A program made the translations under genes and the position numbers. From contig CAXXDV010000003.1 in NCBI GenBank assembly GCA_963674745.2, positions 1,888,001 through 1,952,000 of the forward strand: a stretch of 64,000 nt of DNA. Reading direction: 5' to 3'. The notes below the pieces were generated by a model. It was given only the letters and a program-made list of their open reading frames with translations. It was not told the origin of the DNA and made no database searches. Below, piece after piece: positions 46,003 through 56,846 of the stretch. The DNA comes from Desulfosudaceae bacterium (GTDB taxonomy: Bacteria; Desulfobacterota; Desulfobacteria; Desulfobacterales; Desulfosudaceae). Every line of letters starts with the position of its first letter. Within the stretch, counting starts at the first letter, position 1.

Positions 46003-49000
46003 TTACCGGATCTGCAGGGCCGGGTCCCCCAGGAGGCTGTATATATCCTGCATGTAAGGATATTCCAGATTGCCCAGGGCCTGGTAACGTTCAAGGGCGC
46101 GGCTCACCGCCTGGCCGATAGTACCCGCCTTCTCATCAAATAGCACCCAGAACAATTCCTTGTTCATTCTGACAGCCTCACTGTTTATTGACAACCCGGT
46201 CGGTGACCAGGCCGCGATCATCCCCCCGCCGGATCTCAAGACCAGTTCTTCGCTGAGGGTATCCATCCAGGGATACGAAAAATCTCCCGCCAGGCAGGTC
46301 AAGGCAACGTATATCGGAAACTGACCGTTCGTCAACAGTCCCTGATGAGTGGTATTAAAAAAGTTGGACATGACGTCATAGCCGCCATGACCGATATAAT
46401 TGACCAGCCATTCACCACTGTCGACTGCGGCCACAAAGTCGTTGCGCATCTCACCGGCCGTTCGCCCCGGATAATAAAGCGTATCCACCGTAAAGCCGTT
46501 TACCAGGGCCGACACATCGTTACTGTCGGCGGGGAAATTGTTGGATATGGTGCTGTCCGGCTTATCGGCCACCATCAACACGTTGTCACGGGCGCCCGGA
46601 ACACCGGCCTCATAAGCGATAATCTTGGACACATAATCCGACATTTCGTTGATGGTTTTGACCGGAATACGACCCAGGACCACATTTGAAAGCCGGTCTT
46701 CGTCCACATCCCCGTAAATAACATCCGAGGCGTAAATACCGTAAGGCGTAAAGGTCATGACAACCGGCATCAGGTTCCGGACGCTGACGGAAAAGGTCTC
46801 GAGATTATTCTTATAGTCAAACGTACCGTCCCCGACCAGTAACACATACTGCGGAGACATGGTCCATTGGGTAAGCGCGAAATCGATAAAATCCCGGATC
46901 GCGTAAGGATCGTAAACCCCGAATGAGAACTCGTCAAGAACATCCGACAACCGGACCACCATGGGCGTCATACCCCGGCCTGACCGGTAATCAGACAGCA
47001 ACTGGGCGCCGGCGGTCAGCTCATCGGCCGCAATGATCAGATAATCGGCACGATTGGACGGATCTTTCAGGTTGGACGGTTCATCGGCCAGCAGTTCCGG
47101 TTCTTTGACGGCCGAGGGCAATAAGGCCAGATACGGCGTATCGGTGTTTTCCGGGGCCACCGTAATCCGGTTGTTGGTCGTGTCCAGGGCCGCGTTCTGA
47201 ACCCGCCTGGGTGTTTTGGTATCCGACAGATCGAACAAAGAGATATCCGGCCCGGCAAATCCCGTCACGGTAATCACGTCGTTCCCACCGGCAGTAAAAT
47301 GGAGCATATCACCAGCAGCCACATAAGACTTCTGGTAAGTCAGATCAAAGGAATCCACACCAAAGGCGTCATCGGTTGTCAGGCCGACGACCTTGACGGT
47401 ATTGGCACCCTCAACCAGGTACTGCTGATTGAACGAGAAAGTCTTTGACACCGGCTCAAAACCGCTCCAGTTCACTTCACCCAGGTTCAGCTCACTGCCC
47501 GTGCCCTGGTTCAAAATAACATCAGCCCGGTGGAGGTTGTCGCTGAAGCCATGGAAATGAACCGTCAATTCCGCCGTGAACGTATCACCGGGCGCTACGG
47601 CCGGAACATCCAGTGGGAAGGGATCAAAGCCATAAGCCGGCCCGAACTGGGGATTGCCAAGGGTAAAAATGTCCCAGAACCAGAAATCCGCTACGTCAAT
47701 GGGCACATCCGTCTTGAAAAATGTTTCTTTTTCGAAATGAACCGTGGCGGAAAAGGACTTATCTTCGCCGGTTAAGGCCGGAACATTGTCGGCCGATGTT
47801 GCCGTAAAGCCGGCCAGGGCATTCCGGATATAAGCCAGTTCAGCCATGTCCACTTTGCCGTTACCGTTGACATCGGCATCCGAAGCCGCGTAATCCGGTC
47901 GCAGATCACCGGCCGGCCGGCCGGTCATTACGTCCAGCCCGATGGCTAGATCGGCGGCGTCGATCAGGCCGTCATTGTTCAGGTCTCCCATGCCGTTGTC
48001 CGGCATCAGTTTCAGCCAGTAAACATTATGGTCGGTATAAATCGAAGAGAACGCCTCACCGTAAAAATAAATCGCCGAATAATCCGCTTCCGGATAATAA
48101 GCCACCGGTAAACCCCGGTTGGACAAACGGACTTTTCCTGCCGCAAGGGTGTCGATCACGTCAACTTCATTCACGTTCAGGGCCAGGGCCAGCTTGTCCA
48201 CGGCAACCCGGTACAGGCCGGAGGCTTCTACCCGGATCTTCACATCCCGGACGCCGGTCAACGGGCCGGGGCCCACGGAACGTTCCAGCCCGCGGTCAAA
48301 CGATTGGGTCAAGGCGGTGTTGACCGCCATTTTCGACGGCCTTACAACCGCCTCAAAGGATTTTAAACTCCCGTCCGTTTCGGTGGTCGACGAAACCAGC
48401 CGGCGATCCGTCCTTGAGAACCCCTTCCGGAAAAGGTCAGCTTCATGACGGGTATCCATGGCACCATCCACCATATCGGCCGTCACCGTGTAAGGGCCGT
48501 AACGACGCGTCTGTCCCGAGGCTTCCAGCTCAATAAGGTGATAGGTATAGGTTTCACCCGGTTTCGCCGTTGCATCGAGGCACCGGTAAACACCGCCATG
48601 CGGGAAAACCAGCGCCGGTATGGGACGATTCGTCACCCGCATCATACTTCCTTCATCACGACGCGCTACGGTAAACCCGAGGGTGCCCACCTGGGACACG
48701 GTCTCCCATTCCAGGATGACATGGCCGTTCTGAACAAATGCTTTAAAGTAAGATATTACAGCCAGTGTCGGCTTGATTTTAAAAAACCCGAAATCGATGT
48801 CATCGACATCTTCATCGGATGTGAGCGACTCATCTTCCTCACCATCAAAAGGTTCGGTGGTCCCTTCGGTTTTTTCATAAACGATTTCGTATCCATTCAG
48901 AACGCTGTTGATATCGGTAACCCGGACGGTATAATCAACCCCCGGCGCGGGCGTGGCCAACCCGGCAAATGCGTAATCTCCGGATGCATCTGTGGTCGCC

Positions 49001-55079: not shown

Positions 55080-56846
55080 TTAAGGAACACATGTGCCTAT
55101 AAAACACCCGGAAGAACCGCCACCGCCACCACTGCTGCTGTTGCTGCTACTTCCGGTTTCAGGCGCGACAATCCCACCCGGATCGATAATCACCCCGTTG
55201 GCCACACCGTCCAGGTCACCCGGGCCGCCATCCGTCAAAGTCAGGGTCAGAGAGCGCATACCTTCAGCAAACACGGCATATCCGCTGAAATCGTAAAAGC
55301 TCTGATCAACCGTGGTCTTCCACCATTGCGATCCGGACGTCATTTTTTCGGAAAAACCGATGGTGATGGTTACGGTAGCACCGGAAACGGCGGTCTTCAA
55401 CCGGAACGACAGCAGGCCATGGGTGAAATTGACCGGCCAGAAACCGGCATTTTTAAAATCTTCGGCCGGCGCCCATCTGAAACGCTCAATATTTTCCACG
55501 CCTTCATCTGCAGCCAGACTGAAGCGCAGACCGTTGGCACGGGACTGCAGGACCAAGCCCTCATCACCGGCATCGATTAAATTCGTCTGAATATTCCCGT
55601 TCACGACATCCTGATCATCCGGGACACCGTTTCCGTCATCATCCCTTACCGGGTCGGCACCAGTGGTAAACTCGCCCGCAGTTTCCCACGGTCCGGTGTC
55701 ATAACGAATCCGCCAGTAGTAGGTCGTATAAGCATCCAGTATGAGATCCGGAAGTTGAATTTCCGTCACATCATAGGGGCCGGTATATTCAAACAGCAGA
55801 TTGGTGAAGGTGCTGTCGGTACTGATCTGCCAGACGATGACCGCGTCCGGTCCGACCGTGTCGGGGCCGGGGAACGGCTCTATCTCCATCACCGGATTCA
55901 GGGAAACATCAATGGCACCGTTGGCCGGGCCGATCAGGACATCATGGCAGTCGGGAATACCGTCTTCATCACTGTCAGCATCGGCTACCCCGCAGCCACA
56001 GGCGCCCGGTTCGGTTTTTAACGGGTCATCGGGACATTCGTCCTCATTGTCCGGCACACCGTCATTATCCGAATCCACAACCGGATTAACATCGTTATCG
56101 TCGCCACCCGGCTCCATACCCGGATCGTCGTCAGGCGGTGTCACGCCGCCACTGTTACCCAGGACATTAAAAACAAACAAAGGCTGCTCATCAAACCCGT
56201 CCTTGACAACAGCGGCTTCCATTCCATCCGTATCGTCACGACCGGCCCCACTGTCCGGTCCAAACAGGTACAAAAGGGGCACGTTTTCCGTCAGATCTTT
56301 ATCTGCCGGGTTGAAAACCCCGTTATTGTTATTGTCAGTCCCCCAACCGGCCGGGCCGTTACAAAGTCGGCTCTGAAAAAGGCGCATGCTGTGGATGCCG
56401 GCCGGGGCGGCGCTTTTAACCCGAAAAACAACGGTAAACAACGTTAACGGTTCCGAACCCGCATCTAAAGCCGAGGGTTGTTTGAAAATGCCGGTTAAAA
56501 AAACCGTTCCCGGATTCTCTGTGTTGCTTGACCAGAAAGAGCCCATACCGGGTTCGCCACTCATATCATCCCGGTGAATTTCAAAAACCGATGTGGTCAC
56601 CGCCTCGGATTCCAATGAAAGCACATTTCCCGGGTACGTCAGAGAAAAGGCAGCACCTTCGAACGAGGAGATATCCGACGCAACGATATTGACGGTCAAC
56701 AGCGTAGCCCCTCGAAGATTTCTAGGCGTACCATCCAGACCAATCGTTACGGCAAATGAATTTGCTGCCGGAAAAAACAGGCAAACAAAAGCCAGAAAAA
56801 CAGACAGGAGGATATTCTGTCCTATTTTATTGTTCTTGAGTCTCAT
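55080..56846 (-). CDS. secreted surface protein: cohesin-like domain, thrombospondin type 3-like repeats, choice-of-anchor-U-like domain, Gly-rich CFI tail
   Basis: signal peptide; GAAFSLTY..LFTVVFRV; DSDNDGVPDNEDECP; LTDGGPGDLDGVANGVIIDPGG; ends GGGGGSSGCFIGTCVP. Confidence 0.8.
   Translation of the reverse strand: MRLKNNKIGQNILLSVFLAFVCLFFPAANSFAVTIGLDGTPRNLRGATLLTVNIVASDISSFEGAAFSLTYPGNVLSLESEAVTTSVFEIHRDDMSGEPGMGSFWSSNTENPGTVFLTGIFKQPSALDAGSEPLTLFTVVFRVKSAAPAGIHSMRLFQSRLCNGPAGWGTDNNNNGVFNPADKDLTENVPLLYLFGPDSGAGRDDTDGMEAAVVKDGFDEQPLFVFNVLGNSGGVTPPDDDPGMEPGGDDNDVNPVVDSDNDGVPDNEDECPDDPLKTEPGACGCGVADADSDEDGIPDCHDVLIGPANGAIDVSLNPVMEIEPFPGPDTVGPDAVIVWQISTDSTFTNLLFEYTGPYDVTEIQLPDLILDAYTTYYWRIRYDTGPWETAGEFTTGADPVRDDDGNGVPDDQDVVNGNIQTNLIDAGDEGLVLQSRANGLRFSLAADEGVENIERFRWAPAEDFKNAGFWPVNFTHGLLSFRLKTAVSGATVTITIGFSEKMTSGSQWWKTTVDQSFYDFSGYAVFAEGMRSLTLTLTDGGPGDLDGVANGVIIDPGGIVAPETGSSSNSSSGGGGGSSGCFIGTCVP

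Follow-up and report, generated by a model that had tools for sequence, protein, structure and literature searches.

We analyzed a stretch of 64,000 nucleotides from a Desulfosudaceae bacterium (assembly GCA_963674745.2, contig CAXXDV010000003.1, positions 1,888,001 to 1,952,000 of the forward strand; this whole stretch is the window, and positions are counted from its first letter), in which two adjacent genes encode a giant secreted protein with an internal dockerin, P0001, and a smaller protein with an N-terminal cohesin-fold domain, P0002. The P0002 gene is located directly upstream of the P0001 gene, head to tail, and a gap of 167 bp separates the two open reading frames (ORFs). A first-pass annotation had proposed from the letters alone that these proteins are cohesin and dockerin partners, in a cellulosome-style assembly without cellulases. 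The ORF list and the translations agreed with its placement of the genes, the smaller one upstream of the giant one on the same strand, and with the strings that it had quoted: 47809-47991 on the minus strand translates to MGDLNNDGLIDAADLAIGLDVMTG...DADVNGNGKVDMAELAYIRNALAG, inside the P0001 ORF, and 56370-56705 on the minus strand translates to TLLTVNIVASDISSFEGAAFSLTYPGNVL...FRVKSAAPAG..., inside the P0002 ORF. The genes and the two modules are as follows.

46003..54912, minus strand: P0001 gene, 2969 residues, a giant secreted protein with adhesin-like repeats and a C25 peptidase module at its end
55080..56873, minus strand: P0002 gene, 597 residues from TTG 56873; probable true start ATG 56846 (M10), giving 588 residues
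47809..47988, minus strand: dockerin, P0001 residues 2309-2368, two F-hand repeats between two conserved blocks of the C-terminal module
56139..56771, minus strand: cohesin-fold domain with a family-specific extension, P0002 residues 35-245
56373-56696, minus strand: Pfam Cohesin match, P0002 residues 60-167

A type I dockerin is composed of two repeats of about 22 residues, each with a 12-residue Ca loop followed by a helix and without an entering helix, the so-called F-hand. Direct reading of the P0001 insert gave two loops, DLNNDGLIDAAD and DVNGNGKVDMAE, of 12 residues each, and both fit the pattern D-x-N-x-[DN]-G-x-x-D-x-x-[DE]. When the whole of P0001 was searched, Pfam Dockerin_1 (PF00404) scored 22.5 bits at residues 2309-2366, under the cut-off of 22.9; the same site scored 28 bits in a six-frame search of the genome, and the P0001 orthologue of genome G178 scored 32.8 bits, both above the cut-off. 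Since EF-hand proteins score as well as dockerins by sequence, the insert was modelled with AlphaFold2 (AF2), using residues 2271-2420 of P0001 and an alignment of 20 sequences. The insert was predicted with confidence, with means over 10-residue blocks of 77-93 in the predicted local distance difference test (pLDDT), and its flanks, cut from their domain, were poorly predicted. Both Ca-type loops were followed by a helix (residues 2319-2329 and 2356-2367), and no helix preceded loop 1; the reading and the model together gave the two-repeat F-hand architecture. Comparison with 48,161 chains by VIA-align placed dockerins at the top 14 ranks, with Z scores falling from 7.7 at rank 1 to 3.2 for the last of them, followed by an unrelated chain at 3.1. 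The root-mean-square deviation (rmsd) at rank 1 was 2.1 Å over 62 residues, and type I dockerins scored highest, with Z scores of 6.9-7.7. In agreement, listed ranks 1-34 of a Foldseek search were all dockerins, with target-normalised template-modelling (TM) scores of up to 0.79 and an rmsd of 2.0 Å, and with a best E value of merely 0.018 for this short domain. Collectively, the model confirmed a predicted dockerin fold for P0001 residues 2309-2368, and both the dockerin call and the type I pattern of the first-pass annotation were borne out by these rankings. In an alignment of 37 family members over their last 800 residues, the dockerin appeared as a clean, gap-bounded insertion of about 70 residues in 14 (P0001, P0076-P0087 and P0089) and was absent from the other 23.

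Next, the N-terminal domain of P0002 was analyzed. An exhaustive phmmer search with residues 35-245 found 68 relatives at E≤0.001, and among the best 43 of these 68, 25 matched Pfam Cohesin at E≤0.01 and 13 passed its cut-off. A profile built from 53 family sequences reached the solved type II ScaB cohesins among PDB sequences, at E values from 4e-5 to 3e-4; its best match was an OmpA-family protein, and this arose from the thrombospondin-type-3 (TSP3)-like repeats that come after the domain. A separate phmmer search of the cohesin domain against PDB sequences returned nothing significant, the sole match being a T5 tail protein with an E value of 0.25. The AF2 model of residues 35-245 had a pLDDT of 87.3 and a predicted TM score of 0.84, and Foldseek found 90 PDB matches for it at E≤0.001, the best of which was 5lxv_A (E 2.8e-7; TM 0.54 query-normalised and 0.64 target-normalised). 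The 40 matches listed were all cohesins, of types I, II and III, except for two BcpA pilin chains at ranks 14 and 17. The first-pass annotation had named a domain without the cohesin fold as a possible refutation; model and Foldseek search confirmed a predicted cohesin fold instead. Its wording was too specific in two respects. It had spoken of a type I cohesin; the profile matched type II ScaB and the model matched types I, II and III alike, and the type is therefore not assignable. It had also called P0002 a scaffoldin, a name that does not apply in the multi-cohesin sense, as P0002 carries a single cohesin. The conserved motif LCNGPAGWGTDNNNNG comes after the cohesin core, and the core of this motif is kept across the subfamily.

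We then asked how often the two modules occur in this genome (G000; 5.55 Mb, 99.96% complete) and in its relatives. Genome-wide, Pfam gave exactly one match each for Dockerin_1 and Cohesin, and these lie in the two adjacent genes; family-specific hidden Markov models (HMMs) run at E≤10 on 50,290 six-frame ORFs found the same two genes and no others. Because each module has one match in the genome and the two lie in adjacent genes, the adjacency goes beyond chance. The sole dockerin is on a C25 peptidase protein and the sole cohesin stands alone, in line with the first-pass claim of an assembly without cellulases. No dockerin-bearing glycoside hydrolase was found in this genome by the Pfam and family HMM searches, and the combination that defines a cellulosome, a multi-cohesin scaffoldin with several dockerin-bearing glycoside hydrolases, is not present in it.

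Of 201 genomes sampled from the same order, 27 had the C25 module and 9 had the P0002-type cohesin. Analysis of 30 loci by tblastn located the dockerin insert in eight genomes (G000, G016, G062, G095, G126, G148, G178 and G183). The P0002-type cohesin was present in 6/8 of these insert-bearing genomes versus 3/193 of the others; the remaining two, G062 and G148, contained Pfam cohesins, on a background of 48/201 genomes with a Pfam Cohesin match. Moreover, in four genomes the two genes are direct or close neighbours, in an order that varies. The window has the cohesin gene upstream, and a Desulfococcaceae metagenome-assembled genome (locus L003) has the same order, with a gene for a 927-residue cohesin protein and then the giant gene, on the same 152,738-bp contig as P0078. 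In G178, the giant gene is directly followed by the gene for a 555-residue P0002 orthologue and then by a second C25 gene; in G095, the giant gene is followed by a subtilase gene and then by that of a 1038-residue cohesin-like protein. These neighbourhood statistics rest on genome collections only, and a scan of metagenome contigs with one alignment gave 188 pattern matches, none of which was a relative by tblastn. Given that both modules are unique in the genome, co-occur across genomes and recur as neighbours, we infer that the cohesin of P0002 binds the dockerin of P0001.

Two observations concern the insert in other genomes. The five insert-bearing genomes without an adjacent cohesin (loci L021, L022, L023, L028 and L025, that is, G062, G126, G183, G148 and G016, respectively) have, as read by eye, a non-canonical first Ca loop, for example GDVTGTDGVTLADA, and the four genomes with neighbouring genes retain a first loop of the D-x-[ND]-x-[DN]-G type. 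The second C25 protein of G178, of 803 residues and encoded after the cohesin gene (L048, G178:C59, 12202-14613, plus strand), carries at this site a degenerate insert that resembles the dockerin (tblastn E 1.4e-18, locus L045).

To consider how such a pair might be held at the cell, we analyzed the remainder of P0002, whose features are listed here.

56751..56846, minus strand: predicted Sec signal peptide by direct reading, residues 10-41, MRLKNNK...PAANSFA, with VT after the site
55938..56090, minus strand: Asp/Cys-rich, TSP3-like Ca-binding repeats by direct reading, about residues 262-312
55167..55433, minus strand: choice-of-anchor U, residues 481-569 (NCBIfam NF041766, 86.9 bits against a cut-off of 32)
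55083..55130, minus strand: Gly/Ser run followed by a G-C-F-I-x-x-C-x-P tail, residues 582-597, resembling the CFI-box putative sorting motif

The alignment of P0002 with five homologues begins at or near M10, with the same architecture in all, and the hydrophobic core of the signal peptide is conserved in the homologues, as is its small-x-small site ahead of V42. The version of P0002 in a public collection (P0003) has 539 residues and begins within the mature protein, without the signal peptide (window 56699-56873, minus strand). That P0002 is a lipoprotein was considered and rejected, since by eye a lipobox-like L-A-A-C was seen in just 2/6 aligned homologues and not in P0002. The repeats of the homologues match TSP3_bac or TSP_3, and the family profile matches the TSP3 regions of 5wtl_A and thrombospondin-1. 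The same order of parts is found in P0002, in the orthologue from G178 and in the five close homologues: signal peptide, cohesin, TSP3-like repeats, Ig-like domain, choice-of-anchor U, Gly-rich run and a G-C-F-[IV]-x(5-12) tail.

The SSGCF segment of this tail is invariant in 6/6 aligned P0002 homologues. On the last 40 residues of P0002, the CFI-box model NF041763 (sort_motif_CFI), a motif of 14 positions at the C-terminus, scored 12.1 bits, under its cut-off of 15.9. The same kind of ending, a Gly-rich run, G-C-F-[ILV] and 5-20 further residues, is found in at least 12 other ORFs of this genome; the 12 located (loci L050-L061) are the following.

C1:2505341-2506756
C1:1646337-1647242
C1:1647498-1648589
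C1:723556-729489
C3:1494091-1495257
C3:1537444-1539720
C3:1571452-1573572
C3:675114-676628
C3:1007123-1009792
C3:320324-321691
C3:1352041-1352955
C1:2437688-2440033

Five of these 12 have choice-of-anchor U, and three have the pre-anchor region of sortase-dependent M36 peptidases. When NF041763 was run on seven tails of this genome, that of P0002 included, four others scored 7.9-14.3 bits, all below 15.9, and two were unmatched. Genome G129, of the same genus and 99% complete, has eight choice-of-anchor U matches, seven of which are over the cut-off and end in such tails; neither a Peptidase_C25 match (E≤0.001) nor a homologue of the giant protein was found in it. A role of the C25 module as the general processing enzyme of CFI-box tails was thus rejected, as G129 has the tails without Peptidase_C25. 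The cohesin partner of G095 ends differently, in a hydrophobic helix and an Arg-rich tail. In every case inspected the cohesin partner bears a C-terminal sorting-type signal, and P0001 ends at its peptidase domain with no C-terminal anchor after it. Its signal peptide, choice-of-anchor U and CFI-box-like tail suggest that P0002 may act as a surface anchor, and the combination of a tailed cohesin partner with an anchorless P0001 plausibly fits tethering of the latter by the former.

The C-terminal part of P0001 was analyzed as well, and it contains the following.

46006..48465, minus strand: conserved C-terminal module of about 820 residues of the giant C25 family, residues 2150-2969
46012-47043, minus strand: Peptidase_C25 domain, residues 2624-2967 (Pfam 238.5 bits, profile positions 1-373 of 374)

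Pfam and NCBIfam models found adhesin-like repeats and Peptidase_C25 in the 2969 residues of P0001, which the first-pass annotation had described as an adhesin/peptidase of about 3000 residues. PorU is the sortase, or C-terminal signal peptidase, of type IX secretion. The PorU model NF033707 matched residues 2432-2968 over model positions 174-732 with 191 bits, well under its cut-off of 420, and PorU_rel_Nterm scored 165.9 bits against a cut-off of 450; P0001 is a member of family C25 (PF01364) with a full-length domain, and falls outside the PorU equivalog. It has a GHG motif at residues 2841-2843 and a TC motif at 2872-2873, which we take to be the catalytic His/Cys dyad of family C25, and H2842 and C2873 are almost invariant among 14 aligned relatives. 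A search with the C-terminal 820 residues found 298 homologues at E≤0.001 (candidates of 1632-5196 residues), and those named come from Desulfobacterota, Nitrospirota, Aminicenantes and Anaerolineae. The genome has a second and far smaller C25 gene (G000:C1:646274-647401, minus strand; a frame of 665 residues, 113.5 bits), for which the genome HMM searches gave no dockerin match.

Taking these data together, we regard it as probable, with moderate confidence, that P0001 and P0002 form a cognate, one-to-one, non-cellulosomal cohesin-dockerin pair in which P0002 tethers the giant peptidase; the Ca dependence, the surface location and the question of which protein anchors which are deduced from the kinds of modules present. 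Both proteins would be exported via their predicted Sec signal peptides, and P0002 would be sorted to or held at the cell envelope via its C-terminal region. Its single cohesin would then capture, in a Ca-dependent manner, the one dockerin of P0001, which would project from the PorU-like C25 module. The outcome would be a large adhesin-like cysteine peptidase shown on the surface of a diderm bacterium of the sulfate-reducer type; its gene lies next to a set of exopolysaccharide-export genes.

Several results weigh against this reading. P0002 scored 17.8 bits with Pfam Cohesin (PF00963), and 19.4 bits in the genome search, under the cut-off of 24.1; the Pfam check that the first-pass annotation had suggested for both domains gave a dockerin score above the cut-off in the six-frame search and just below it in the whole protein, and cohesin scores below the cut-off in both. 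The PDB sequence matches of the insert were led by EF-hand proteins (SCaMC-1, E 6.7e-5), and EF-hand matches were on par with dockerins (E 3e-4 to 4e-3) by sequence alone. Because related genomes are not independent observations, the counts make the co-occurrence look stronger than it is, and they carry no P-value; the insert count covers those of the 37 C25-module matches that had a locus, all but 7. In 5/8 insert-bearing genomes the cohesin genes are on other contigs, which means that adjacency is not a general feature. Several cohesins and dockerins are present in many genomes of the order, so that the partners elsewhere are not one-to-one. Finally, surface anchoring by P0002 counts as a guess, because the CFI-box tail is a putative sorting motif.

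Of the other explanations, the one that survives best holds that both modules are genuine and are not partners of each other. The partner of the dockerin would be a cohesin or some other ligand located in the matrix or on another cell, for instance within multispecies aggregates; the cohesin protein would have a different target, and the two genes would be neighbours because they share a surface or biofilm locus. The cohesin genes on other contigs fit this explanation, and so do the Pfam cohesins of the 48 genomes, with up to 19 matches in each, and a genome with 20 Dockerin_1 matches; inter-partner roles have moreover been proposed for cohesin/dockerin adhesins of syntrophic sulfate reducers (PMC10553843). 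We nevertheless consider it unlikely, as the only cohesin and the only dockerin of this genome are in adjacent genes, the P0002-type cohesin follows the insert across the order, and the two are found side by side or close together in four genomes, in differing gene orders.

It would also be conceivable that the pair is not a static tether and instead brings an enzyme to its substrate or cofactor, such that the C25 module processes or attaches the CFI-box protein or other tailed cargo. The homology of the C-terminal module to PorU (191 bits over residues 2432-2968), the GHG and TC motifs kept in P0001 and the short C-terminal tag on P0002 would agree with such a role, which we judge quite improbable: CFI-box tails occur independently of C25 peptidases, as observed in G129, and the PorU score is far under 420. 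Yet more doubtful is the proposal that the insert is a structural, EF-hand-like Ca site stabilizing the peptidase module and that the upstream domain is a generic Ig-like adhesin, with no cohesin-dockerin contact, as the full-protein Pfam scores below both cut-offs, the calmodulin-type EF-hands among the best PDB sequence matches of the insert and the lack of significant phmmer matches for the cohesin domain would allow; dockerins rank first in the fold searches with unrelated chains far below, cohesins rank first for the other domain, no helix lies ahead of loop 1, and the insert co-varies with the cohesin subtype. Just as slight a chance is given to a type-IX-independent surface attachment complex, an analogue of PorU-PorV assembled by a cohesin-dockerin clip, in which the docked, sortase-like C25 peptidase would process or couple envelope or matrix proteins and a cassette of PqqD, radical-SAM, HprK-like, S26 and nucleotidyltransferase genes would mature one component.

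Comparison with known systems places the proposed tethering pair among published arrangements. Cohesin-dockerin systems without cellulases have already been described, among them one in which a C25 peptidase bears a dockerin (PMC8542988) and one made up of adhesins in sulfate reducers (PMC10553843). For 'Candidatus Stygibacter' (Cloacimonadota), Williams et al. (2021) proposed a surface complex that contains a gingipain-like C25 peptidase with a C-terminal dockerin (PMC8542988). That organism is likewise diderm, lacks cellulose degradation and has a dockerin-bearing C25 peptidase, and a cohesin protein with a C-terminal sorting signal was likewise proposed to hold the peptidase at the surface; both cases are sequence-inferred (PMC8542988). 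It differs in having C-terminal dockerins on several enzymes (GH18, GH57, S8 and C25) and a scaffoldin of 3,755 residues with tandem cohesins, carbohydrate-binding modules and an anchor of the type IX secretion C-terminal domain kind (PMC8542988), whereas here one dockerin is inside a PorU-like module and one cohesin is on a choice-of-anchor U/CFI-box-like protein.

Murali et al. (2023) described cohesin/dockerin adhesins in syntrophic sulfate-reducing bacteria and anaerobic methanotrophic (ANME) archaea (PMC10553843). In what we drew from that paper, the shared traits are a Desulfobacterota-type lineage, putative adhesins, a patchy, transfer-like distribution and polysaccharide/biofilm loci; the domains there are listed from annotation and expression data, and neither a C25/PorU-like dockerin insertion nor a one-to-one adjacent pair is described in those portions.

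With regard to clostridial type I dockerins (e.g., 2ccl, 4dh2, 3ul4 and 5nrk), the dockerin model aligned at Z scores of 7.5-7.7 and an rmsd of 2.1-2.4 Å over 60-63 residues. Both have two 12-residue Ca loops with a helix after each, and the cohesin model matches the clostridial cohesins; identity is merely 22-28% for the dockerin and 10-18% for the cohesin, and the cohesin of P0002 has in addition an extension of about 70 residues with a conserved AGWGTDxNxNG motif. Unlike in clostridial cellulosomes, there is no cellulase and no multi-cohesin scaffoldin, and the dockerin of P0001 is internal. P0001 shares with PorU the aligned C-terminal part, including the full Peptidase_C25, but about 2,100 residues of adhesin-like repeats precede the module and the score is 191 versus 420 bits. 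P0002 shares with the CFI-box proteins the Gly-rich run and G-C-F-I, but remains at 12.1 bits, below 15.9. Our literature searches found no description of a dockerin inserted in a PorU-like module, or of the arrangement seen here. Particular to this locus are, then, the dockerin within the PorU-like module of a giant repeat protein, the strict one-to-one relation, and a cohesin on a choice-of-anchor U protein with a CFI-box-like tail.

The general picture is unchanged by this locus, because non-cellulosomal cohesin-dockerin systems, protease-bearing ones included, were already described. What it offers is a concrete candidate partner for one clade of the giant C25-peptidase surface proteins, a large and so far unstudied family whose 298 relatives at E≤0.001 come from anaerobes of several phyla. 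It also provides a naturally minimal cohesin-dockerin pair, one-to-one and probably orthogonal given its 10-28% identity to clostridial modules, which may serve as a protein-assembly tag, and it links a cohesin to the catalogued putative CFI-box tail.

The portion of P0001 that precedes the C25 module contains a predicted signal peptide and several repeats.

54823..54912, minus strand: predicted signal peptide, about residues 1-30, read from sequence (MNCHNKPQALIRFLMVFFCIVFTAGQAFGA)
52696..52884, minus strand: DUF11-type repeat, residues 677-739 (Pfam DUF11 45.8 bits, TIGR01451 51.4 bits)
51751..52692, minus strand: duplicated module of about 310 residues, copy 1, residues 741-1054
51256-51513, minus strand: extra SdrD_B copy, residues 1134-1219
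50281..51219, minus strand: duplicated module of about 310 residues, copy 2, residues 1232-1544
48913..50259, minus strand: SdrD-B/CarboxypepD_reg-like beta-sandwich array, about residues 1552-2000, limits approximate

Pfam SdrD_B scored 209.5 bits over five stretches of P0001 and CarboxypepD_reg 69.1 bits, and the NCBIfam SdrD model matched residues 1552-1843. The two copies of about 310 residues share 65% identity over 315 columns (E 2e-129) in a BLASTP of one segment versus the other; BLASTP of the whole protein against itself gave no off-diagonal matches, and the duplication was seen when the two segments were compared. Each copy opens with RDEFSSAAYDNDDGTANW and weakly matches reelin-subrepeat/MAM-like models, and a MAM-like protein is encoded just upstream of the giant gene in G178.

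Upstream of the pair and on the same strand, 57342-63989 (minus strand) contains four polysaccharide-export genes, whose products are listed below; all four proteins scored under the XrtA/PEP-CTERM equivalog cut-offs.

O-antigen-ligase-like membrane protein
Wzc-like tyrosine autokinase
Wza-like exporter fused to FG-GAP repeats
ExeA-like ATPase

Downstream, 41833-46094 (minus strand) contains the cassette of five genes.

PqqD-like protein
radical-SAM/SPASM protein
HprK-related-kinase-like protein
S26 signal-peptidase-like protein
NTP_transf_5 protein

Parts of this cassette are also found beside the giant genes of G178, in which radical-SAM/SPASM and HprK-like genes come after the C25 genes, and of G095, in which NTP_transf_5 is encoded two genes upstream of the giant gene. 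A scan for promoters and terminators in 45500-57600 gave 12 and 15 sites, respectively, against chance expectations of 11.1 and 14.6, and counts so near chance do not allow an operon to be inferred.

The giant protein and the P0002-type cohesin were found neither in the same-genus genome nor in the two same-family genomes searched. The G+C content in the giant gene is 0.54-0.57 versus 0.47-0.50 in the flanks (window 46001-56000). Either horizontal acquisition or a bias in composition caused by the Gly/Asp/Thr-rich repeats could account for the high G+C and the lack of matches in these relatives. A gene for a T2SSE/MshEN-type secretion ATPase is located 25 kb away in the window (18732-21080, plus strand), and a similar gene lies directly after the cassette in G178 (L048, 17142-19031, plus strand).

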